Assembly (NCBI GenBank): GCA_016789445.1
Contig: JAEUQT010000001.1
Span: 131,603-195,602, forward strand
Direction of reading: 5' to 3'
Source: a bacterium
GTDB lineage: Bacteria; Patescibacteriota; Minisyncoccia; Phycocordibacterales; UBA2100
Length of the DNA stretch: 64,000 nt
The position numbers were made by a program, and so were the translations under genes. Positions within the stretch are counted from its first letter, which is position 1. The number at the start of each line of letters is the position of its first letter. Shown here one piece after another: positions 16,503 through 60,815 of the stretch. Under the pieces are notes generated by a model. The model saw nothing but the letters and a program-made list of their open reading frames with translations, made no database searches and had not been told where the DNA came from.

Positions 16503-16629
16503 TAACGGCTCGTGTCTCTACACTTTTGAGCCCGCTCTTGATTTCATCAAAGCGAGCGCGGTCTACCTCCCTGAATTCTAGATTGTGAATTTCCATATTA
16601 CATGCGAGTACGCCAGACAAGGATACTTT

Positions 16630-16748
16630 GGAAACCCTCGGTTTTCCAACGGTCGCCGAAGCGACCTGCCTTCCGACACGGGGAACTCCCGTTCCCCGAC
16701 CCCCTCCCTATCCAAGTCTGGCAACAAATCTCGTTGCACTCAATTTGT
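16630..16748 (+). repeat. Family B tRNA-3'-flank element (GAAACCCTCGGTTT ... CTTCCGACACGG ... GC hairpin ... CCGACCCCCTCCC ... inverted copy of tRNA-Gln 3' end)
   Basis: Shares ordered motifs with 21886-21989. It ends in an 18-bp perfect palindrome formed with the tRNA-Gln 3' end (CCAAGTCTGGCAACAAAT / ATTTGTTGCCAGACTTGG). Confidence 0.6.
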
Positions 16749-16817
16749 TGCCAGACTTGGATTCGAACCAAGATACACTCCTCCAGAGGGAGTAGTCCTA
16801 CCATTAGACGATCTGGC
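16749..16817 (-). tRNA. tRNA-Gln (anticodon CTG)
   Basis: Manual fold: acceptor GCCAGAT/GTCTGGC, anticodon stem ACTCC/GGAGT with loop CTCTGGA, T-arm CTTGG-TTCGAAT-CCAAG. Shortish at about 69-70 nt. Confidence 0.7.
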
Positions 16818-21800: not shown

Positions 21801-21885
21801 AATGCGGATATCCTACGCGAAAATGCTGGATTTTCAATCTTACGGTCCGGGATTTCACTGCTCGCCGTATTCTCGGCTGCGCTTT

Positions 21886-21989
21886 CGAAACCCTCGGTTT
21901 CGAATAACTTCCGACACGGAGGGGGTCCGGTGGGTCCCCCTCCGACCCTCCCCCGTTCAATCCCGGTCGGGCCTCTCGCTACGCTCGTG
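21886..21989 (+). repeat. Family B tRNA-3'-flank element (second copy) between the two tRNA-Thr genes
   Basis: Ordered motifs shared with 16630-16748: GAAACCCTCGGTTT, CTTCCGACACGG, GC hairpin GAGGGGGTCC...GGTCCCCCTC, CCGACCCTCCCC, then an inverted copy TTCAATCCCGGTCG of the tRNA-Thr(GGT) T-arm. Confidence 0.55.
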
Positions 21990-25666: not shown

Positions 25667-25685
25667 GTTTGAGTGACGGGACTCG

Positions 25686-25902
25686 GTCACAGATATTTCT
25701 TGCGCCGTCGGACAGATTTTTTCGCGACCATAGGCATCGTCTCGGCCAAGAGCTCATTCGTCGCCGTCGCTCCTCATTCCTCTCGGCCCTGATTTTGCGA
25801 CCCCGTCTGCTGACGGGTCCGCCGCAAAATCTTTCGAGTCCCGCCACTCTGCTGAAAAACGCAACAACCCCGACGGCATGCGTCGGGGTTGGCGTTTTGC
25901 GC
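25686..25902 (+). repeat. Family A tRNA-3'-end-associated miniature element, copy 1 (degenerate), at tRNA-Asp
   Basis: Begins GTCACAGATA plus a hairpin. Contains an inverted copy TTCGAGTCCCGCCACTC of the tRNA-Asp T-arm/acceptor and a terminator hairpin CCCCGACGGCATGCGTCGGGG. Flanked by a 15-bp direct repeat GAGTGACGGGACTCG (25671-25685 and 25903-25917) equal to tRNA-Asp nt 56-72. Confidence 0.7.
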
Positions 25903-26352: not shown

Positions 26353-26387
26353 CTCTCTATTCTATCGTAGTGTCGAGGGTGGGGGTC

Positions 26388-26538
26388 GGTCACGAATAAT
26401 TTCTGTCCCGTCGGACAGAAATTTTCGCGACCCCGGCTCGCGGTCTCGCCTGCTGGCGAGACATCGCTCCGCCTTTCGACCCCCACACGCTGTGTGCGCA
26501 GGCACACAGCCCTCGACACAAATCCACTTCGTATATTT
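26388..26538 (+). repeat. Family A element, copy 2 (canonical), at tRNA-Met
   Basis: GTCACGAATAAT; hairpin ATTTCTGTCC-CGTC-GGACAGAAAT; core TTTTCGCGACCCCGGCTCGCG-GTCTCGCC-TGCT-GGCGAGAC-ATCGCTCCGCC. Then an inverted tRNA 3'-half mimic TTCGACCCCCAC[hairpin]CCTCGACAC. Flanked by a 19-bp direct repeat (26369-26387 and 26539-26557) equal to tRNA-Met nt 56-74. Confidence 0.8.
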
Positions 26539-26539
26539 G

Positions 26540-26613
26540 TGTCGAGGGTGGGGGTCGAACCCACGACCTTGGCTTTATGAATGCCACGCTCTAACCAACT
26601 GAGCTACCCCGAC
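26540..26613 (-). tRNA. tRNA-Met (anticodon CAT; elongator Met or lysidine-Ile type)
   Basis: Manual fold: acceptor GTCGGGG/CCTCGAC, anticodon loop TTCATAA, T-arm GTGGGTTCGACCCCCAC. Confidence 0.75.
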
Positions 26614-27164: not shown

Positions 27165-27421
27165 CGCAGGGCGGGCTTGGTCAAGAACATTTCTTGCTTC
27201 CGTCGAAGCAAGAAATTTCTCGGCCCTGATGTTGCGGGGGCGGGCTTGGTCACGGATAATCTTCGCGCCGTCGCGCGAAGATTTCCGCGACCCCGGCTCG
27301 CGGTTTCGCCCACTGGCGAAACATCGCTCCGCCTTGCAAGTCCAGCACGAAAAGCGCACCGGCGCTTTTCTCCCCGCGACTGCACAAACACAAAACCGCC
27401 CGTACGGCGGCTTTGTGTTTG
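27165..27421 (+). repeat. Family A element, copy 3 (canonical) plus a tandem partial unit (27165-27227), at tRNA-fMet
   Basis: Partial unit GGGCGGGCTTGGTCA plus hairpin ATTTCTTGCTTC-CGTC-GAAGCAAGAAAT. Full unit from 27247: GTCACGGATAAT, hairpin ATCTTCGCGC-CGTC-GCGCGAAGAT, core TTTCCGCGACCCCGGCTCGCG-GTTTCGCC-CACT-GGCGAAAC-ATCGCTCCGCC, inverted T-arm mimic TTGCAAGTCCAGC, terminators. Direct repeat TGTTGCGGGGGCGGG (27228-27242 and 27422-27436) equals tRNA-fMet nt 60-75. Confidence 0.8.
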
Positions 27422-27423
27422 CT

Positions 27424-27495
27424 TGTTGCGGGGGCGGGACTTGCACCCGCGACCTCCAGGTTATGAGCCTGGCGAGCTACTACTGCTCCACCCCG
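27424..27495 (-). tRNA. Initiator tRNA-fMet (anticodon CAT)
   Basis: Near-identical to the E. coli tRNA-fMet body (GCGGGGTGGAGCAG ... GCTCATAACC ... GGTCGCGGGTGCAAGTCCCGCCCCCGCAA) with an unpaired 1:72 position (A1/A72), the initiator hallmark. Confidence 0.75.
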
Positions 27496-34896: not shown

Positions 34897-35388
34897 CTAC
34901 GGCGTTACGCAGAAGCGCGCGGTCGCACCACTGTCAGAGCAGTCGATGCCGCCGATCGGATTGGTATCAACATCGCCCGCAGGAACGGCCGAAGATCCAC
35001 CTTCGATATCAGCACCAATGACATAGCCTGGGCACGCTGGAGACGTTGTCGTACATGCAGTCGTACCGTCTGCCGCGAGCGCTGCATAGCTGTACGGCGC
35101 GAGCGTCGTCGGATCAAGCGGAAGCGCCGAGATGTACTTGCTGGTGACGAGCACCGACGTGGTTGCTGAGGCAAACGCTTCGGTAGCCGTCGGGAAACGC
35201 TGGTTTGCATCGTAGTAAAGCTCAAGCGCCAACTGAAGCTGCTTGATGTCGGAGATACGGCGTGCATCGCGACCCTTCTTACGGGCGCTGTTGAGTGACG
35301 CCAGGACGACCGACGAGAGGATACCGATGATGGCGATCACCACGAGGAGCTCGATGAGGGTGAAGCCGCGCTGAGATCGATTAAACAT
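34897..35388 (-). CDS. Type IV pilin (major pilin candidate, paralog 1)
   Basis: RG/FTLIELLVVIAIIGILSSVVLASL with Glu5; Cys-containing C-terminal domain. Confidence 0.85.
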   Translation of the reverse strand: MFNRSQRGFTLIELLVVIAIIGILSSVVLASLNSARKKGRDARRISDIKQLQLALELYYDANQRFPTATEAFASATTSVLVTSKYISALPLDPTTLAPYSYAALAADGTTACTTTSPACPGYVIGADIEGGSSAVPAGDVDTNPIGGIDCSDSGATARFCVTP

Positions 35389-35425
35389 AGTTATGATTGC
35401 GTTAATCCGCTAATGAATAACAAAC

Positions 35426-35872
35426 TTACGGTTGCTGACAGTACATCGGATCGGTGCAGGTTACGCTACCCACCGTACCGTCGATGTCCTGACTGAGCGC
35501 TGCGTTCGCCGTATCCTCAAGCGTTGCGCCGAGGATGTAGCTCGCACAGACACCGCCGCTTTGCGTACATGCTGCACCCGCGCTCGTAAGGTTATCGAAC
35601 GAGTACGAGCCCGATTGAGGATCTGTCGGCACGACTGAGATGTATGTCGGCGCAAGCTGCGAGAGAGCATCCGGATACTCGCTCGAGTTATTGTCATAAA
35701 AGAGCTCGAGCGCCAACTGAAGCTGCTTGATGTCGGAGATACGGCGTGCATCGCGACCCTTCTTACGGGCGCTGTTGAGTGACGCCAGGACGACCGACGA
35801 GAGGATACCGATGATGGCGATCACCACGAGGAGCTCGATGAGGGTGAAGCCGCGTTCATTTCGTGAAAACAT
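35426..35872 (-). CDS. Type IV pilin (major pilin candidate, paralog 2)
   Basis: N-terminal ~60 aa identical to paralog 1 (about 150 nt perfectly identical DNA); divergent C-terminal domain. Confidence 0.85.
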   Translation of the reverse strand: MFSRNERGFTLIELLVVIAIIGILSSVVLASLNSARKKGRDARRISDIKQLQLALELFYDNNSSEYPDALSQLAPTYISVVPTDPQSGSYSFDNLTSAGAACTQSGGVCASYILGATLEDTANAALSQDIDGTVGSVTCTDPMYCQQP

Positions 35873-35978
35873 AGAATTGTGAATAAACGGTTAAAATTTG
35901 ATCGCTATGCACGCTACGCGCGATGCAATCATCATACGGCACATCACACTCCCCTTGTCGAGTGGGTGTGTATAACCG

Positions 35979-44412: not shown

Positions 44413-44435
44413 AATTGCGGAGAGGGAGGGATTCG

Positions 44436-44582
44436 GTCACGGATAATTTTCTGCTGAAAATTTCCGCGACCCCGCCTCGTCGCCTACGCTCCTGCGACTT
44501 TCGAATCCCTCCGTTTCGCTATGCGAAACCGCCACCCTTTCGGGCGGCGCTCTCCGCAAAAAACTTGCGGGTCTCGTTTTTT
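44436..44582 (+). repeat. Family A element, copy 4 (variant), at tRNA-Ser
   Basis: GTCACGGATAAT; hairpin AATTTTC-TGCT-GAAAATT; TTTCCGCGACCCCGCCTCG; covarying hairpin GTCGC...GCGAC. Inverted tRNA-Ser 3'-half mimic TTCGAATCCCTCC[hairpins]CTCTCCGCAA. Flanked by a 21-bp direct repeat TTGCGGAGAGGGAGGGATTCG (44415-44435 and 44583-44603) equal to tRNA-Ser nt 56-76. Confidence 0.8.
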
Positions 44583-44585
44583 TTG

Positions 44586-50982: not shown

Positions 50983-51148
50983 GTCACGGATAATTCAATG
51001 AGTGTCAATATCGAGTCCCCAGGGATAATTTTGTCGCCGTCGCTCCAAAATTTCCCCGGGCCTGGCTCGCGGTCGCGCGTACTCGCGCGACATCGCTCCG
51101 CCTCGGACCAGTAAACAAAAACAGCGCTCAATGCGCTGTTTTTGATTC
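50983..51148 (+). repeat. Family A element, copy 5 (composite/degenerate), at tRNA-Ile
   Basis: GTCACGGATAAT at 50983, then a second GATAAT at 51023 with hairpin ATTTTGTCGC-CGTC-GC..CAAAAT; core TTTCCCCGGGCCTGGCTCGCG-GTCGCGCG-TACT-CGCGCGAC-ATCGCTCCGCC; partial inverted copy of the tRNA-Ile 3' end (CGGACCAG); terminator AAACAGCGCTCAATGCGCTGTTTTT. No clean direct repeat found. Confidence 0.6.
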
Positions 51149-51225
51149 TGGTCCGCCCTCTTGGATTCGAACCAAGGACCGCAAAGGTATAAGCTTTGTG
51201 CTCTAACCAACTGAGCTAAGGGCGG
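51149..51225 (-). tRNA. tRNA-Ile (anticodon TAT), CCA encoded
   Basis: Manual fold: acceptor CCGCCCT/AGGGCGG, anticodon stem CAAAG/CTTTG with loop CTTATAC, T-arm CTTGGTTCGAATCCAAG, discriminator A, then CCA. Confidence 0.7.
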
Positions 51226-56346: not shown

Positions 56347-56730
56347 GGGGATGATTGGCTTCGACAGGGAGATCGATGCATATACATGCATGGCGGAAGT
56401 GGGTATCTTCCCAAAAACACCCAAACTCTAAGTGCAAACAAAACTGCACGGGGGGTTCTCTCGCCTATTCAGGTGAAGGACCTCGGCTTTGCTTTCGCGT
56501 AAGCCAAGGCAACCGTTCGTTCAGAGGTCTCCAATACTCTGATGCGAGCGTCATATCATTGGATACGGCTTCCCTATCACACCGTAGGTTAGTCTAAAGA
56601 AAGAGTGTCCGACGCGAAGCGATCTTGTGCGTTCCATACTCTCCGCGTTCAAAACCTTTGAACGCCCTACGCCTTGTAGATGTGTGTATGCGTTTCTCTT
56701 TGCACCGCGGTTCGATTCCGCGCATCTCCA
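56347..56730 (+). ncRNA. ssrA: tmRNA (ssrA), standard one-piece
   Basis: Directly downstream of smpB. 5' end GGGGATGATTGGCTTCGACAGGG matches the tmRNA 5' consensus. The acceptor stem GGGGATG/CATCTCC has a G3-U wobble (Ala identity). 3' T-arm CGCGGTTCGATTCCGCG plus discriminator A. Candidate tag frame from GCA 56434 to TAA 56500-56502 (...VKDLGFAFA). Terminator hairpin GCAAGCCGCC...GGCGGCTTTTGC at 56739-56766. Confidence 0.8.
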
Positions 56731-56743
56731 CAGCCAATGCAAG

Positions 56744-56912
56744 CCGCCTTCCAGGCGGCTTTTGCATTTGCATTGCGACGGTGGAGATGAAGAAAGCGCC
56801 TGCGCGCTTTCTGCGGGGGTCTCGAAAGGCGGAGCGCTGTTCCGACAGCAGGCGGAACCGCGAGCCGGGGTCGCGGAAATTCAAAGGCGACGGCGTTTGA
56901 ATTATCTGTGAC
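56744..56912 (-). repeat. Family A element, copy 7 (inverted orientation), at tmRNA gene 3' end
   Basis: Reverse complement reads GTCACAGATAAT, hairpin (TTCAAACGCC-GTC-GCCTTTGAA), TTTCCGCGACCCCGGCTCGCG-GTTCCG-CCTGCTGT-CGGAAC-AGCGCTCCGCC, T-arm-like TTTCGAGACCCCCGC, a hairpin, then TCATCTCCAC (copy of the tmRNA 3' acceptor strand). Direct repeat CGATTCCGC (56713-56721 and 56913-56921) equals the tmRNA T-loop from nt 56. Confidence 0.75.
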
Positions 56913-56972
56913 CGATTCCGCCGCCGATATTCCTTCATGCAACCTTATGTGTTTTGATACGTCCACTGAGAT

Positions 56973-58298
56973 ATGCCGAAGCGATACTGGTGGAAGGATG
57001 CGAAGATATACGAGCTCTACGTCGATCGCTTCGCGGGGAATTTCCAGAACCTGACGGCACAATTGGATTACCTGGAGCGTCTTGGCATCAACGCACTCCA
57101 CATCCTCCCCCACTACCCGTCGCCCATGGCCGATGGCGGCTATGACGTGATGGAATATCTCAACGTCCGGCCGGAACTCGGCACGATCGAGGATTTCGAT
57201 ACCTTCCTCAAAGAAGCGCACCGCCGCGATATCAAAGTCATCATCGACTTCGTCCTCAATCACGTCTCAGAACATCATCCTTGGTTCTTGGAGGCGCGAT
57301 CATCGAAAGACAACAACAAGCGCGATTACTTTTTATGGAGCGAGAGCGGACACGAACTCGCCCTCGGTTGGAATGCCTTCCCCGACATCAAGCCTGGCAA
57401 TTGGATATTCAACGAAGAGACGCAGGACTACTACTATGCGACCTTCTATCCGCAGCAGCCGGATCTGAATTGGGACAATCCGGAAGTCTTCGCAAGCATG
57501 ATGCAGAACATGGATTTCTGGGCCGGCCGCGGCGTGGACGGCTTCCGCTTGGACGCAGCGGTGACGCTCATCAAACGAGACGGCACGCTCTCGAAAGGAT
57601 TGCCGGAAACGCACCAGCTCATCAAACGCATCCGCAAACACTTGGACACGAAATTCGGCGGCGAGATCGTCCTTCTTGCTGAAGCGCATCAGCACGTCAA
57701 AGAGATGAAGACGTATTTCGGGGACGGCGACGAATGCCATCTCGTGTACCATTTCTCACTCACCGAGCAGCTCTTCCTCGCTCTTATGCGCAATGATCGC
57801 ACCGAACTCGATGCGATGCTTGAGGAATCACGCGACATCCCGGAGAACTGCCAGTGGGCGATCTTTCTGCGCAATCACGACGAACTCTCGCTCGCGACAC
57901 TCGCCCCTGAAGTACGCACCGAGCTCATCACCTATCTTGATCCGAAGAGCGAATATCTTTTCAATGGCGGCGCAGCGACCGCCAAGAGGTTGGGCAGCAT
58001 GTTCGACGAAGCGAAGCTGCGCGAAGCGATTTCTCTCCTCTACTCGCTTCCGGGGGCGCCTATCATGTACTACGGCGACGAGATCGGCATGCAGAATCTT
58101 CCACGTACGGAAGGCGTGATCGACAGCCGCGTGTACGTCCGCGGTGAATTCGATTGGCTTGAGGCCGGGCTGCAGCGCAGTGATCCTGATTCCCTCTACA
58201 ACTTCACGAAGGGTGTCATCCGTAAATCACTCTGGCCATATAAGCGGGATTTCAATTCACCTCCCCCAGAAGAGGGATCGCCAAGCGACGACGAGTAG
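56973..58298 (+). CDS. GH13 alpha-amylase family protein (trehalose synthase/amylosucrase-like)
   Basis: GH13 motifs: DFVLNHVS (region I), GVDGFRLDAA (region II, catalytic Asp), EAHQ (region III Glu), FLRNHDE (region IV). The N-terminus WKDAKIYELYVDRFAG resembles TreS. Confidence 0.7.
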   Translation: MPKRYWWKDAKIYELYVDRFAGNFQNLTAQLDYLERLGINALHILPHYPSPMADGGYDVMEYLNVRPELGTIEDFDTFLKEAHRRDIKVIIDFVLNHVSEHHPWFLEARSSKDNNKRDYFLWSESGHELALGWNAFPDIKPGNWIFNEETQDYYYATFYPQQPDLNWDNPEVFASMMQNMDFWAGRGVDGFRLDAAVTLIKRDGTLSKGLPETHQLIKRIRKHLDTKFGGEIVLLAEAHQHVKEMKTYFGDGDECHLVYHFSLTEQLFLALMRNDRTELDAMLEESRDIPENCQWAIFLRNHDELSLATLAPEVRTELITYLDPKSEYLFNGGAATAKRLGSMFDEAKLREAISLLYSLPGAPIMYYGDEIGMQNLPRTEGVIDSRVYVRGEFDWLEAGLQRSDPDSLYNFTKGVIRKSLWPYKRDFNSPPPEEGSPSDDE

Positions 58299-59556
58299 TC
58301 TCACCTTTGAAGAGTTGCCGCGTCCGCTCCGGCATGTCTCCTCGCTCGCCAAGATGCGCGCCGAATTTCATCGCCTGGAAACTCGAACCGAGGAAGACTG
58401 CGTGTTTACCGTATCGTTCCGATATCGCATCCACGCTCTCGAACACCATCTTCAATCCTTGGGATTCTTCCACTTTGCCGAAAAGATCGAGCTGAAGACT
58501 GTCCGCGGGGCGCAGCTGCGCGAGGGTCACGCCGCTCGCACGATACAGCTTCCCGTTCTCGAAAACCTGCGGGAAGAATTTAGCGACCTCGCGCAGGACA
58601 TCCTGCGGGACATTCGTGGGGTGCGGGAGCTTCACTTCGATACCGTGGTATCTGAAATCCTGTGTCTTGAGAAAGAAGAACACGCGATCACTCGCGAGAT
58701 TCCATCGGCGCGCCTTGATGCACGCATTCTCGACATTTTTGGAGAGCTGACTGAAGATAAACTTCGCATCGCGCAATGGTGGCGTGAAGGTCTTGGTCTT
58801 CTGGATGCTCTGGTAGCTGGTCTTCTTTTCCGTCGTGAGTGGATAGATGGCTTCGCCATTGAGCTCCCGCCAGATCTCCTGCACCGGCTTCGAAACTTTC
58901 GCACGCACCCATGGTTCGTTCTTGCGCGCAAAATCGAGCGCGCTCTGAATACCGAACTTATTGAGATACGCCGCAGTGTTTGGCCCGATCCCCCATACAT
59001 TCCCTACCGGCAGCTTTCCGAGAAATTTTGATGCGTCGCTGAGCGGTATCGAGGTGAGACCATCAGGCTTCTTCCATTTCGAACCGACCTTCGCCAGGAC
59101 TTTCGTCGCCGAGAGACCCACACTGAACGTGATGCCGAGCTTCACCTGCAGCTCCTGCTTAATGGAATGCGCCATGTCGTGGTAGTTCATCCGATTCACG
59201 CGGCGCATACCGGTGAGGTCCGCGAAGCATTCATCAATGGAATACTCCTCGACGGCAGGCGTGTAGCGACGCACGATCTCGTACATACGCTCTGAATATA
59301 GACTGTAGGTCTCGTAATCCGACGGCAGCACGATCGCATCTGGGCACGCTTCAAGAGCTTCGCTTAATTTGACCCCGCGCTTCACGCCGCGACGCTTCGC
59401 CTCGTAGGTGCACGCAGAGACGATGCCGCGCTCTTTGCCGGTGATGACCGGCTTACCGCGCAGCTTTGGATTCTTTGCCACTTCGACTGCAGCAAAGAAA
59501 GAGTCACCATCCACGTGCAGGATGGCTCTGGGATACGAGTATGACTTACCCCACAT
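58252..59556 (-). CDS. dinB: DNA polymerase IV (Y-family translesion polymerase DinB)
   Basis: ILHVDGDSFFAAVE palm motif, Y-family fingers and little-finger regions; 434 aa. Confidence 0.85.
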   Translation of the reverse strand: MWGKSYSYPRAILHVDGDSFFAAVEVAKNPKLRGKPVITGKERGIVSACTYEAKRRGVKRGVKLSEALEACPDAIVLPSDYETYSLYSERMYEIVRRYTPAVEEYSIDECFADLTGMRRVNRMNYHDMAHSIKQELQVKLGITFSVGLSATKVLAKVGSKWKKPDGLTSIPLSDASKFLGKLPVGNVWGIGPNTAAYLNKFGIQSALDFARKNEPWVRAKVSKPVQEIWRELNGEAIYPLTTEKKTSYQSIQKTKTFTPPLRDAKFIFSQLSKNVENACIKARRWNLASDRVFFFLKTQDFRYHGIEVKLPHPTNVPQDVLREVAKFFPQVFENGKLYRASGVTLAQLRPADSLQLDLFGKVEESQGLKMVFESVDAISERYGKHAVFLGSSFQAMKFGAHLGERGDMPERTRQLFKGETTRRRLAIPLLGEVN

Positions 59557-59576
59557 AGGCCATGTACGTCCGGACT

Positions 59577-59645
59577 GTCACGGATAATTTTCTGCTGAAA
59601 ATTTCCGCAACCCCGCCTCGACACCTAAAGTGTCTCCGGCCTTGC
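59577..59645 (+). repeat. Family A element, copy 6 (orphan partial copy, no adjacent tRNA)
   Basis: GTCACGGATAATTTTCTGCTGAAAATTTCCGCAACCCCGCCTCGACACCTAAAGTGTC, nearly identical to the first 60 nt of copy 4. Lies in the intergenic gap between the dinB start and the mazF-like gene. Confidence 0.65.
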
Positions 59646-59682
59646 GAAGCTCCATGTATTCGCTTCTCACCCCAGACCATAG

Positions 59683-60168
59683 CTACCTGAACTTAAGCGT
59701 GTAGGCTGGCTTGAATGCAGGAAGTGGTGCGTACCGCGAAGTGCGTGGTAGCGGCGTCCGCATGCGTGATGGCCGGATCTGTTTCGCAGGCTTTACCGGA
59801 TTCGTCTCGGCAAGAAATTCCATGACCGCGAGATTCACCGTAGCGAATTGCCGATCACTGATGCGACCGAGACGACGGATAAGCTGGTCCTTCCGCAGCA
59901 TGCGCATCTGCGAAAGGGTTCCGGTGCGGTTCGCACCCTTGAGTGACGTAAGAAAATAAAACGGGGTTTCCTTACCGCTCGCACGCGACGTAAGCGGCAA
60001 TCCCCAGAACGTATCGGTACCGAGCGTACGGAACACCAAGACCGGCCTCTCAGCTGCAGCGTCGGTTGCCGAAGGCACCGAACACCACCAGATATCCTGC
60101 GCACGATATTTCACTTCTCGTACGCGCGCTGTCTTCTTCGAAAAAATGTGGGAAAGCTGTTTAAACAT
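59683..60168 (-). CDS. PemK/MazF-like toxin domain protein (putative mRNA interferase) with C-terminal Pro/Arg-rich extension
   Basis: Pattern D.WW ... ERPVLVFRT ... GLPLTS ... typical of the PemK/MazF fold; longer than canonical at 161 aa. Confidence 0.45.
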   Translation of the reverse strand: MFKQLSHIFSKKTARVREVKYRAQDIWWCSVPSATDAAAERPVLVFRTLGTDTFWGLPLTSRASGKETPFYFLTSLKGANRTGTLSQMRMLRKDQLIRRLGRISDRQFATVNLAVMEFLAETNPVKPAKQIRPSRMRTPLPRTSRYAPLPAFKPAYTLKFR

Positions 60169-60187
60169 ATGCTGGTTGGTTCCGCTA

Positions 60188-60760
60188 CTAATACTTCCGT
60201 ACGACGCCCGTGACTACTGCTTCGACTTTGAACGATTCTGTCGGATAAATGTTGCTGAACTTCTCATTCGCCGGCTCCAGATAATGATTCCCCTTCTTGT
60301 CCTGTCTCAGGTATTTCATGGTGTACTCGCCGTCGACCATCGCGATCACGATCTGCCCGACCTTGTACGTGTTGCGACGCTCGACGACTACCATGTCTCC
60401 CGGACGGATCCCCGCATCGATCATGGATTCGCCTTTTACTTTCAAGATGTAACTCGATTCCTTATTCGGCGTCAGGAACTCGTCGAAATCCATCGTATCG
60501 AGCAGCTCCTCCTCCGCTGCCGACGGAAAGCCCGCTTCGACTAAGCCAAGGAGAGGGACACCTCCTCCGAAATTTCCGGGAGAAAGACGGCCCTGTCGGT
60601 CTTTGACGACCACACCCTCGTCGACAAGTTTTTCGATGAGCTTGAACACAGCGTTCTTGGATCTAAAACCCGTGAAGACCATGATCTCCTTGTAGCCCGG
60701 GAAACGCCCATGCTTCTCATAAAACGCGACCAACTTCTGTTTATAGTGCTCATACGTCAT
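60188..60760 (-). CDS. lexA: LexA repressor (S24 peptidase)
   Basis: N-terminal wHTH; C-terminal S24 domain with Ser (GESM) and Lys (KVGQIVIAMVDGEYTMKYL). Start set at MTYEHYKQ (60760) so the SOS box lies upstream; the alternative start at 60808 would overlap the box. Confidence 0.8.
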   Translation of the reverse strand: MTYEHYKQKLVAFYEKHGRFPGYKEIMVFTGFRSKNAVFKLIEKLVDEGVVVKDRQGRLSPGNFGGGVPLLGLVEAGFPSAAEEELLDTMDFDEFLTPNKESSYILKVKGESMIDAGIRPGDMVVVERRNTYKVGQIVIAMVDGEYTMKYLRQDKKGNHYLEPANEKFSNIYPTESFKVEAVVTGVVRKY

Positions 60761-60799
60761 ACATGTTTTCCCTAGTAATTCCTTATGGAGTTCAGTGTA

Positions 60800-60815
60800 G
60801 TGAACCATGGTTCAC
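60800..60815. promoter_or_regulatory. Putative LexA operator (Cheo-box-like GTGAAC-N4-GTTCAC perfect palindrome)
   Basis: GTGAACCATGGTTCAC lies 40-55 nt upstream of the proposed lexA start; it matches the Gram-positive-type SOS box core GAAC-N4-GTTC. Confidence 0.55.

Follow-up and report, generated by a model that had tools for sequence, protein, structure and literature searches.

One kind of integrative element or genomic island targets the 3' ends of tRNA and tmRNA genes by means of tyrosine integrases, is bounded by attL and attR sites, and has sublocations in the T-loop and at the 3' end of the gene. The short units described here come from a 64,000-nt stretch of a Patescibacteria genome (hereafter the window), and they resemble such elements in several respects. 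They are inserted in the 3' part of a tRNA or tmRNA gene or at the 3' end of a protein gene, they appear to carry a replacement gene end, they show a direct repeat extending from the T-loop up to the gene end, and they accrete in tandem. The flanking repeats contain the 3' part of the target gene, as attL and attR do, and are 15-23 nt in length (33 nt at topA). Unlike the known elements, the units are 130-230 nt long with no integrase and no cargo, only 53-273 nt lying between the repeats; a single core family serves essentially all isotypes; and an inverted copy of the att identity block is held internally together with a covarying single-strand structure. A second relevant comparison is with the attC sites of integrons and the folded, single-stranded attP site of CTX phage. 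The order of core site, cargo, inverted core site, structured centre and core site is shared, as are arrays, bulged bases and a stem structure that is conserved above sequence, and in both cases the site would form by intrastrand pairing. The paired boxes of integrons are a constant 7 nt (RYYYAAC/GTTRRRY), whereas those found here are 3-23 nt, copied from the host and without a GTTRRRY consensus. There is likewise no attI and no evidence of IntI or Xer, and the "cargo" consists only of a gene end and a terminator.

The copy at tRNA-Met (CAT) serves as the type. Its host gene lies at 26539..26613 on the minus strand (ARAGORN; Rfam tRNA, 65 bits), and all coordinates of this unit refer to that strand unless stated otherwise. 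In the direction of the gene, a full unit consists of the gene 3' end (a1), a spacer or terminator, an inverted copy of the gene end (a'), core domain A, core domain B ending in GTGAC, and a direct repeat of the gene end (a2) beyond GTGAC, which was missing from the initial annotation. Approximately 20 bases of the end of the host gene are copied, once reversed and once direct, in a unit that encodes no protein. At tRNA-Met, a1 extends from C56 to C74 (26539-26557) and is followed by a spacer (26524..26538) made up of an 11-nt loop and AAAT at the start of the trailer, for which the minimum free energy (MFE) fold shows pairing to the outer end of a'. The acceptor half of a' (ACC; 26510..26523) complements tRNA positions 65-74 and a further 4 trailer nucleotides without mismatch, and the T half of a' (26474..26486) is the complement of T-loop and T-stem positions 54-65 plus an AAA linker. 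The two halves are split by hairpin H (26487..26509), which has a CUGC loop. On the plus strand this region reads TTCGACCCCCAC (26475-26486), the hairpin (26487-26509) and CCCTCGACAC (26510-19). Domain A (26435..26473) is a hairpin with a GGAG/CGA internal loop, an AU bulge and an AGCA loop, and is supported by covariation and a covariance model score of 110 bits. Domain B (26389..26434) is a long hairpin, GGGGUCGCGRAAAU...AUUAUYYGUGAC, with a bulged A, G-U pairs and a GA/GA tip. Directly after GTGAC, a2 (26370..26388) is a perfect 19-nt direct repeat of C56-C74, identical to 26539-26557. It was also observed that a' carries an A opposite the site where the real tRNA-Met has G5-U68.

Two forms of the unit were distinguished. 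Long copies have a' halved into two pieces of ~11 nt by a 24-26-nt hairpin H, whose site is the boundary between acceptor stem and T-stem (position 65|66) in 15 of 19 such copies, drawn from many genomes; their junction with the gene falls in the T-loop, between positions 55 and 56. The junction of compact copies is at approximately position 72, and here a CUGC loop is conserved on the left hairpin (21 of 41 loops across genomes). At the point where a' meets the core TCGAA is constant, as is CGA where the core meets a2. MFE folding gave two outcomes: the tRNA followed by a closed three-way junction, and a form in which a2 completes the tRNA and the unit is inserted in its T-loop. The palindrome formed by the inner acceptor copy and the real tRNA end, as initially annotated, is real (perfect 14-nt arms, 26510-26523 and 26535-26548, around an 11-nt loop, with the real tRNA 3' end included), but it represents one of two alternative pairings of a', the distal direct repeat being the other partner.

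It had been proposed that each copy is customised to its host gene, and the tailored strings quoted in support were located in the DNA for the Met, Asp, fMet, Ser and tmRNA copies. An a' is present in the trailers of all six tRNA- or tmRNA-linked copies of the window and matches its own gene only. Specificity was scored by comparing the final 24 nt of each tRNA with the 330 nt downstream of all tRNAs. Inverted self-scores were 14 for Asp, 12 for Met, 9 for fMet, 13 for Ser, 9 for tmRNA, 16 for Gln and 15 for Thr-GGT, and off-diagonal scores were 10 or less with the exception of two adjacent, near-identical Thr genes. The acceptor match of the Ile copy is reduced to 8 nt, CGGACCAG. Direct-repeat self-scores, which reflect the repeat at the distal end of the element, were 15 (Asp), 19 (Met), 14 (fMet) and 19 (Ser). 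Own-gene tailoring of both the direct and the inverted copies was upheld in 85 tRNA-linked copies of essentially all isotypes. A match to a single consensus had been set beforehand as the refuting outcome; instead, the internal segments fit the adjacent gene, with TCGAA(A), the complement of the universal T-loop, as the one invariant stretch. The inverted copy is complementary to a1 and the first spacer bases rather than to a2 (60 vs 3). Direct repeats span C56 to 1-3 nt beyond the discriminator (15-23 nt), and the identity block ends 1-3 nt past the discriminator, where tRNA conservation stops. Across all loci the duplication ranges from 3 to 33 nt and the end sequences are locus-specific. 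Mismatches between a' and a1 showed no G-U enrichment in a small sample.

In the window, 6 of 9 tRNA genes carry an element, and 2 more carry a member of a second family (family B). The tRNA-Asp copy (25671..25898, minus strand) has a terminator, nested or partial core units, an a2 at 25671-25685 and an uninterrupted a' at 25832-25849 with one G-U. The initiator tRNA-Met copy (27168..27424, minus strand) has a terminator, an a' at 27335-27381 that includes H, a core at 27249-27333, an a2 at 27231-27249 and an additional domain-B unit at 27168-27230. The tRNA-Ser(GCT) copy (44415..44584, minus strand) has a short-type core, an a' interrupted by two hairpins and a 21-nt a2 (44415-44435). At tRNA-Ile(UAU) (50983..51148, minus strand) there is a terminator, a core at 51010-51110 and a partial unit at 50983; a clear a2 was not found. 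The tmRNA copy (56732..56926, plus strand) comprises a terminator, an a' at 56781-56827 with H, a core at 56828-56912 and a degraded a2 at 56913-56925. As for known integrative elements, the tmRNA 3' flank is a hotspot, with other inserts there in L126, L128 and L131. Intrinsic terminators were predicted between tRNA and core for the Asp and fMet copies, and by eye also for Ile and tmRNA. One copy without an RNA gene lies between a mazF-like gene and dinB (59564..59690, minus strand); it is a variant with an additional 5' hairpin, and the start of dinB is duplicated on either side. Family B elements, whose conserved core is a different one, occur at tRNA-Gln (16600..16746, minus strand), where the tRNA end is present as a perfect inverted copy of 20 nt (16710-16729 vs 16743-16762) and the direct repeat is imperfect, and at tRNA-Thr(GGT) (21860..21988, minus strand), where the T-arm and acceptor end are present as an inverted copy.

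The two core hairpins covary, with 92.4% of cells paired and 26 of 36 pairs altered on both sides; none of 500 shuffles matched the observed value, and slid controls reached at most 47%. In unconstrained columns read on the gene-sense strand, G-U outnumbered A-C (39 vs 20). These compensatory, helix-preserving changes are those of a structured single-stranded element, either RNA or ssDNA, and the core is a structure under selection. It is built of P1 and two hairpins with tandem sheared G-A, conserved loops and internal loops that are conserved and non-programmable. Core identity is 76-81% within one genome and 77-88% between genomes, and since cores are no more alike within a genome, the values fit long-term constraint over recent bursts of transposition. 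At the Rfam gathering score only tRNA and tmRNA were reached, with no family covering the core, and at E values up to 10 the core gave no relevant match to ribozymes, omega RNA, retrons, group II introns or tRNA-like structures. A full-text literature search returned no description of such an element.

More than 240 loci were found in Patescibacteria genomes and metagenomes, including the closed chromosome CP066682; matching metagenome contigs were all ~1 kb or longer, a size range in which free minicircles would not appear. The element is widespread in one group of tiny genomes, the CPR/Paceibacteria, and its core is conserved across the class. Upstream of 82 of 129 copies the nearest feature is a tRNA or tmRNA on the same strand; for 11 of 129 it is the end of a same-strand ORF, and for none of 129 is it an opposite-strand RNA gene. 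Orientation follows the host gene: the tmRNA copy of the window is reversed relative to the others while GC skew is unchanged. Among 105 tRNAs of element-bearing genomes, 47 have no element.

Close strains differ in which copies are present, absent or exchanged. In L121, a 99%-identical strain, the Met element is a different one, the Asp element is absent and the fMet copy lacks the 67-nt additional sub-unit. Empty sites occur between mazF and dinB in L128, L129 and L131, and at fMet and Met in L124, an 85% relative too diverged to polarise the native flank. The terminator in the fMet spacer beside a1 resembles that of the empty L124 allele. Arrays were found in L005, L015, L047, L113 and L151, the last having 3.4 perfect 134-nt units that each open with the last bases of the tRNA; 5'-partial units terminate the arrays of L015 and L151. 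A precedent for insertion with gene replacement comes from L131, a relative, where the resident tRNA-Ile is split in the anticodon loop and the insert carries a complete replacement tRNA-Ile. Relics of tRNA 3' halves without the family-A core are also present in relatives (Met in L123 and L125, Ile in L131).

To describe the copied segment as a tRNA mimic, as the initial annotation did, is too narrow, because an identical architecture copies the ends of two protein genes, topA and rplL, and the start of a third, dinB. These copies, 3' of topA, 3' of rplL and 5' of dinB, are each tailored to their own gene, and at topA and rplL the junction lies within the last codons. At topA (L006), a perfect 33-nt repeat is followed by a diverged yet intact alternative C-terminus with its stop codon; at rplL (L036) the final codons are duplicated; and in L190 the last a2 has a terminator of its own.

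The reading that we put forward, tentatively, is that of a miniature insertion unit of cassette type, which enters a gene at the T-loop or in its last bases. An integrating element with an attP-like core had been suggested at the outset, with gene conversion or templating as a possible alternative, and the integrating element is the best-supported reading given the flanking direct repeats, the recognisable displaced ends (topA of L006; L190), the empty sites and the tandem arrays; against it, the unit is protein-less, and an integrase or transposase is neither in the window nor enriched nearby. No recombinase, integrase, transposase or reverse transcriptase was detected in the window, none of these was enriched within 2.5 kb of 129 copies, and clustering of neighbouring genes gave only housekeeping families. 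A long autonomous version was not found, the nearest upstream a2 copy always lying 53-273 nt away, and a viral scan of 2.9 million contigs gave 0 matches. On the insertion reading, the insertion unit has three hairpins, and the "mimic" (a') would form one strand of the left one. This unit would sit inside the 3' end of the host gene and complete the gene with its own copy of a and a terminator, while the resident 3' end would be pushed downstream to become a2 and then decay. The hairpin on the a1 side probably belongs to the element, since a' tracks a1 (60 vs 3) and the CUGC loop is conserved in compact copies. In a single-stranded form, of DNA or possibly RNA, a would pair with a', and the unit would take up a three-way junction in which the duplex of the long arm reproduces the target site. 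This folded form may be the substrate recognised by a putative trans-acting recombinase or nuclease, as the analogy of integron attC and CTX-phage attP suggests. The model leaves unexplained how correct 20-nt target copies arise for essentially every isotype, and the cores within a genome being no more alike than those between genomes also speaks against insertion. If the fMet and L124 terminators are homologous, insertion would have occurred downstream of the native terminator and a' would have been templated in place. The position of H would have no role in a pure DNA-recombination model, though the boundary is also the midpoint of a.

A related proposal, which we consider unlikely, is a self-contained, nucleic-acid-guided insertion element in which a' acts as a programmable guide or a site akin to a primer-binding site or, alternatively, a new class of RNA in which core and a' mimic the top half of a tRNA. 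As a guide, a' would pick any gene end with which it can pair and would set the length of the flanking duplication, and its sequence could be templated anew from the target with every insertion, for instance through target-primed rolling-circle copying of a small circle; copying of a circular template would account for the 5'-partial ends of arrays. On the RNA alternative, the top-half mimic would be produced from tRNA trailers in CPR bacteria.

Two rivals dispense with insertion by a dedicated element. The units may be 3' trailer modules of highly expressed genes that act in cis as RNA in processing, termination or protection, with a' pairing in turn with the tRNA 3' end and with a2, and with a', a2 and H forming a mimic of the acceptor/T-stem stack for RNase P, RNase Z or the CCA-adding enzyme, as in MALAT1/mascRNA; tailoring would be upheld by selection and concerted evolution. 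This is somewhat unlikely. A trailer function would fit the strictly sense orientation 3' of RNA genes (82 vs 0), the strong covariation with sense-strand G-U, tandem sheared G-A and conserved loops, the class-wide conservation of the core without within-genome homogeneity, the placement of H at the very point from which the D and anticodon arms depart in the acceptor/T stack, and both MFE folds. However, the predicted terminators (Asp and fMet; Ile and tmRNA by eye) separate the tRNA from the core, and a2 decays while a' still fits a1, so that the a':a2 acceptor helix is not maintained. The a'/a1 mismatches, a small sample, are not enriched in G-U, nearly half of the tRNAs in the same genomes (47/105) lack the element, and an RNA role would explain neither the duplication of segments of topA, rplL and dinB nor the tandem arrays or the strain-level exchange.

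The other rival, decidedly improbable in our judgement, is local templated rearrangement without dedicated mobile machinery, in which replication or transcription conflicts at tRNA ends and terminator hairpins would lead to template switching. Fold-back copying would extend the terminator stem into the tRNA end to give a', and T-loop microhomology would let the polymerase copy the core from another locus and return to give a2. Exact complementarity of a' to a1 and adjacent trailer bases is as expected from such copying, as are the centring of the palindrome on the spacer or terminator, the perfect 20-nt palindrome at Gln, the T-loop microhomology on offer (TCGAA at a'/core, CGA at core/a2) and the 5'-partial array ends (L015, L151), which aborted copying predicts; that no enzyme gene was found near the copies also agrees. 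Yet it accounts neither for hairpin H at a fixed point of a' nor for the conserved CUGC hairpin of compact copies, the class-wide conservation of the core sequence, the usual lack of a second spacer copy after a2, or the diverged topA C-terminus downstream of the element. As for ordinary causes (chance, assembly artefact or decayed tandem tRNA duplicates), core-less tRNA 3'-half relics do exist in relatives (L123, L125, L131), but off-diagonal scores are at background, the architecture is shared by >240 independent loci including the closed chromosome, and a' is a perfect Watson-Crick complement including discriminator and T-loop bases, unlike the 5' strand of a real tRNA. These causes are refuted by the specificity scores, the wide distribution and the core covariation, and we regard them as extremely improbable.

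The insertion unit was also compared with further known systems. Like the PATEs of IS200/IS605 and the REP/REPIN elements, which move by single-strand HUH transposition, it is small, protein-less, rich in hairpins, located at gene 3' ends and, as we propose, mobilised in trans, and as in IS608 the target would be recognised by base pairing between element DNA and target. PATEs and REPs, in contrast, lack target duplication, recognise 4-5-nt targets, carry no gene-specific 20-nt copies and are oriented by replication strand, whereas here a duplication is present and the orientation is that of the host gene; neither TnpA nor RAYT was seen. The bridge (seek) RNAs of IS110/IS1111 are likewise structured noncoding RNAs within an element that bear target-complementary segments, but they have two internal guide loops with 4-9-nt guides and an adjacent DEDD recombinase gene, whereas the units found here have no recombinase, a single complement of 3-23 nt and a long flanking duplication. 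MITEs and similar repeats (Correia, RPE, ERIC, BOX) are also short, non-coding, multi-copy, structured, intergenic at 3' ends and polymorphic between strains. They have fixed terminal inverted repeats and a fixed short duplication and usually occur in one genus, whereas the host-derived "terminal repeats" described here vary by locus, the duplication is 3-33 nt and the core is class-wide. MALAT1/mascRNA has a helix, lying downstream of a transcript, that is built like the acceptor/T-stem stack of a tRNA, and the retroviral primer-binding site is a complement of the tRNA 3' 18-20 nt up to the T-loop. The a':a2 acceptor helix is not maintained here, and a primer-binding site of retroviral type was rejected because a' pairs with the genomic trailer (CAA...) and not with CCA; no reverse transcriptase was found.

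Several other identities were considered and rejected. Group II intron domains D5/D6, raised by a bulged A 8 nt before the ...AC end, were dismissed on the grounds of 9 bp below the bulge and the lack of D1, an AGC triad hairpin or an Rfam match. For the hammerhead ribozyme, GAUGAGAAA occurs in some copies, but the core has no GAAA/UH arrangement. A diversity-generating retroelement (VR/TR) was rejected: the positions at which the topA copies differ are not specific to adenine, a reverse transcriptase is absent, and diversification would not be expected of tRNAs. A double-stranded Xer/dif-like site in domain B was rejected because the spacing of its conserved arms varies by 10-30 nt, which indicates a hairpin and not a fixed-spacer site.

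Taken together, these observations point to an undescribed kind of site-specific insertion element. Many tiny, streamlined genomes of CPR/Patescibacteria keep this element of ~150 nt behind a large share of their tRNA genes. If mobile, these would be the smallest known gene-targeted integrative units, with a copy of the target held in their own hairpin, and they would constitute a compact, possibly programmable insertion system. If the element instead functions as RNA, it would represent a class of structured, tRNA-linked RNA that is both new and abundant, in a radiation that is uncultivated and about whose tRNA processing little has been learned. On either reading, it is an unannotated feature that affects the annotation of tRNA gene ends, assembly breaks in metagenome-assembled genomes and the comparison of strains.

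Behind the tRNA-Met gene (26539-26613, minus strand), the plus strand reads TTCGACCCCCAC (26475-26486), a hairpin (26487-26509) and CCCTCGACAC (26510-26519). As the initial annotation had proposed, the strings at 26475-26519 are the T-loop, T-stem 3' strand and acceptor 3' strand of the gene's own tRNA, reversed relative to the gene. The long palindrome that it described is present as well, with perfect 14-nt arms (26510-26523 and 26535-26548) around an 11-nt loop, and the strings that it cited for Asp, fMet, Ser and tmRNA were all found in the window. That account covers only the inner, inverted part, however. In host-gene sense, the full unit comprises the 3' end of the host gene (a1), a spacer, the inverted copy (a'), a 1-3-nt linker, two core hairpins (domains A and B, the latter ending in GTGAC) and a distal direct repeat of the gene end (a2), which at tRNA-Met lies at 26370-26388 and repeats 26539-26557. 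The spacer is often an intrinsic terminator-like hairpin, and terminators are predicted in it at Asp and fMet.

In "long" copies, a runs from T-loop C56 to 1-3 nt beyond the discriminator, and at position 65|66 a hairpin (H, 24-26 nt) splits a' into a 10-11-nt acceptor half and an 11-12-nt T half, a layout shared by 15 of 19 long copies, which come from many genomes. "Compact" copies have an a of just the final 3-7 nt of the tRNA (e.g. CACAA), with a and a' forming the base of a single long hairpin. Of 41 such loops, 21 read CUGC; because this loop recurs at different tRNAs and in different genomes, this terminator-looking hairpin is part of the element.

In order to score tailoring, the last 24 nt of the nine tRNA/tmRNA genes were compared with the 330 nt downstream of each gene. 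Inverted and direct self-scores, respectively, were 14 and 15 for Asp, 12 and 19 for Met, 9 and 14 for fMet, 13 and 19 for Ser, 9 and 9 for tmRNA, and 16 and 7 for Gln; Thr-GGT had an inverted self-score of 15, and its direct score is uninformative, reflecting a second, near-identical Thr gene inside its downstream window. Since cross-scores were at most 10, except between the two near-identical Thr genes, tailoring to the adjacent gene is genuine and gene-specific. The customization claimed by the initial annotation was thus borne out, with the all-versus-all scoring revealing host-specific segments rather than one consensus. Of the positions that distinguish a1 from a2, a' is complementary to a1 at 60, to a2 at 3 and to neither at 3. 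Agreement with a1 extends into the first spacer bases, and a2 frequently keeps only its first 7-12 nt before diverging abruptly. Hence a' and the a1 side travel or evolve together, and a2 is relic-like. Mismatches between a' and a1, counted by eye, are few and not enriched for G-U (about 2 G-U, 4 A-C and 5 transversions), which speaks weakly against RNA-level selection on this helix.

The core is a conserved single-strand structure. An alignment of 46 copies from different genomes was tested against a hand-drawn structure of P1 plus two hairpins; 92.4% of cells were paired and 26 of 36 pairs showed both-side changes, values reached by none of 500 shuffles, and sliding the partners by 1-3 columns gave at most 47% pairing. 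Eight pairs in domain B are invariant only because the search pattern fixed them. In columns not fixed by the pattern, the gene-sense strand has 39 G-U versus 20 A-C. On our reading of the alignment, tandem sheared G-A pairs can be drawn both in the GGAG/CGA internal loop of domain A and in the GAGCGACGGCGAG tip of domain B. A fixed-spacer, double-stranded protein site was rejected for domain B, as the separation of its conserved outer arms varies by 10-30 nt, which fits a hairpin instead. No Rfam family matches the core.

Scans of species-representative genomes and of metagenomes yielded at least 120 and at least 120 further loci, respectively; a scan of viral contigs yielded no matches. A covariance model of the core of family A, the main element, found seven copies in the window (E <= 6e-7) plus partial units. 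Among the matches listed, genome loci are nearly all from Patescibacteria of the Paceibacteria group (Kaiser-, Adler-, Nomura-, Taylor- and Yonath-bacteria and others), and the window SmpB shares 88% identity with the SmpB of a Kaiserbacteria MAG. Two copies come from MAGs with the labels Polaromonas and Gammaproteobacteria (L002, L067); their contigs are short and probably mis-binned from Patescibacteria. In the first 60 fetched loci (77 copies), 58 of 105 tRNA/tmRNA genes have a sense copy within 300 nt downstream and 3 an antisense copy, figures that do not amount to an unbiased genome census, as all comparative loci were retrieved with the domain-B pattern and domain B is conserved by construction. 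The nearest upstream feature of 129 pattern matches was a same-strand tRNA/tmRNA in 82, a same-strand ORF end in 11 and an opposite-strand RNA gene in none, the remainder being contig edges, tmRNAs missed by ARAGORN or unclear cases. Every isotype is represented among host tRNAs. Since the tmRNA copy points the other way from the rest although GC skew has a single sign over the whole window, orientation tracks the host gene rather than the replication strand.

The element is not specific to tRNA. It lies 3' of topA in four genomes. At locus L006, the topA product ends in KTIPERCSNKSCANHNPHKREKK before its stop, and GTGAC is followed by a 33-nt perfect topA repeat and a diverged but intact alternative end (KTIPERCSNKTCPNHNPHKKGK, then a stop); a' is 8 nt, complementary to the start of the repeat. 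At locus L036, the final six rplL codons are copied both inverted and direct. A mazF-like gene and dinB flank an "orphan" window copy (59572-59648), one without an RNA gene. This site is empty in L128, L129 and L131, where the dinB ATG directly follows the mazF stop, and the window copy has the first ~12 nt of dinB on both sides. The surrounding cluster (58252-60808) comprises lexA-like (Peptidase_S24), mazF/pemK-like and dinB (Pol IV) genes; here the element separates dinB from the toxin gene and duplicates the region of the dinB start codon.

Syntenic contigs for strain comparison were retrieved via the NUDIX and SmpB proteins. In L124 (85% protein identity), the fMet and Met sites are empty. 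In L121 (99% identity), the Met site has an inverted family-B element instead of family A, the Asp site has no element and a different neighbor, and the fMet site lacks a 67-nt domain-B sub-unit bounded by an 11-nt repeat (CAAGCCCGCCC). Family B has the same layout and inverted-copy logic around a different core (GGGTCGG-hairpin-CGTGTCGGAAG-hairpin-AAACCGAGGGTTTC). It occurs at tRNA-Gln (16600-16746) and tRNA-Thr(GGT) (21860-21988) in the window and, inverted, behind tRNA-Met at about 1380-1500 of L121, and was seen only in these two genomes among the comparative loci examined. The tmRNA 3' flank, where the window has family A, is an insertion hotspot; unrelated 370-470-nt inserts with small ORFs, different in each, occupy it in L126 (10969-11340), L128 (10035-10490) and L131 (11183-11600). 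Compared with these relatives (SmpB identity 92-97%), the tmRNA T-stem foot pair in the window (56700-56731) is flipped from G-C to C-G on both strands, and the degraded a2 behind the tmRNA element retains the form found in the relatives (CCGCC).

Arrays are common (L005, L015, L047, L113). Behind tRNA-Arg(UCU) in L151 (9400-10150, minus strand) are 3.4 perfect tandem 134-nt units, a copy number that may be uncertain in a short-read assembly; units start with the tRNA's last bases (CAT) and end in GTGAC, and the final one is cut off inside domain A. In L190, the a2 after the final unit has a terminator of its own downstream, which is what displacement of a native gene end would produce.

Inserts bearing replacement parts of a tRNA are found in a relative. 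In L131 (4760-4995, minus strand), a ~155-nt insert interrupts the anticodon loop of the resident tRNA-Ile(UAU), whose 5' half (TAGCTCAATGGTTAGAGCACGGAGCTTAT) and 3' half lie on either side; the insert holds an entire replacement tRNA-Ile between inverted repeats. The right flank of this insert looks like a decayed domain B. A tRNA-Ile with anticodon UAU is found in the window (51149-51225) and in L126, L128 and L131; in L126 and L128 a NUDIX gene, missing from this position in the window, has its start codon immediately after the tRNA. In L123 (825-905) and L125 (3101-3170), tRNA-Met is followed by a hairpin and the displaced 3' part of an older tRNA-Met (T-arm and acceptor strand), and the L123 relic is identical to the functional T-arm of L125. 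The window genes for Gln, Thr-GGT, Asp, Met, fMet, Ser and tmRNA have CA (usually CAA) after the discriminator, not CCA, which only Thr-CGT encodes among window tRNA genes; the tmRNA of the close relatives L126 and L128 encodes CCA, and that of the window does not. Elsewhere, two neighboring pilin-like genes that have N-terminal methylation motifs contain a 181-nt direct repeat (35210-35390 and 35694-35874), whose copies are 93% identical and separated by 484 nt; a pilin gene has probably been duplicated in tandem.

The best-supported explanation, to which we give slightly less than an even chance, is insertion of a mobile or amplifiable unit consisting of a, the spacer/terminator, a', domains A and B and GTGAC. 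Such a unit would sit within the host gene end, with its own a completing the gene and the resident end displaced, and pairing of a with a' would fold it into a three-way junction with a double-stranded copy of the target as its long arm. Insertion would account for the direct repeat and a2 decay, for the alternative C-terminus of topA, for the terminator that follows the final a2 of L190, for an identity block ending where tRNA conservation ends and for the element-borne CUGC hairpin; arrays would follow because the target is regenerated as GTGAC|a. It does not explain how one core family gained correct 20-nt copies of essentially every tRNA. No recombinase was found in the window or enriched near copies, and no autonomous version of the element was found. 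A trailer RNA with a role in tRNA processing or termination would suit the strict sense orientation, the placement of H and a core conserved class-wide without within-genome homogeneity (76-81% within the window versus 77-88% for the best foreign copies), but terminators upstream of the core, a2 decay and duplicated protein-gene ends speak against it, and we regard it as rather unlikely. Enzyme-free template switching at terminator hairpins seems improbable, and chance or artefact is scarcely credible.

Integron attC cassettes and the folded attP of CTX phage would be the closest analogies to the folded unit of the insertion model. Integrons share the cassette topology, but the elements here are without their constant core boxes; tRNA-targeting integrative elements behave alike, but those here carry no integrase, the defining feature. 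Nor did the elements classify as MITEs, IS200/IS605, IS110 bridge RNAs or an Rfam family, and full-text literature searches found no description of such elements. It is doubtful that they are categorically new, whether as a self-guided or re-templated insertion system or as a new tRNA-mimic RNA class. We class them provisionally as site-specific gene-end insertion elements, a known kind, built on a new structured core family.
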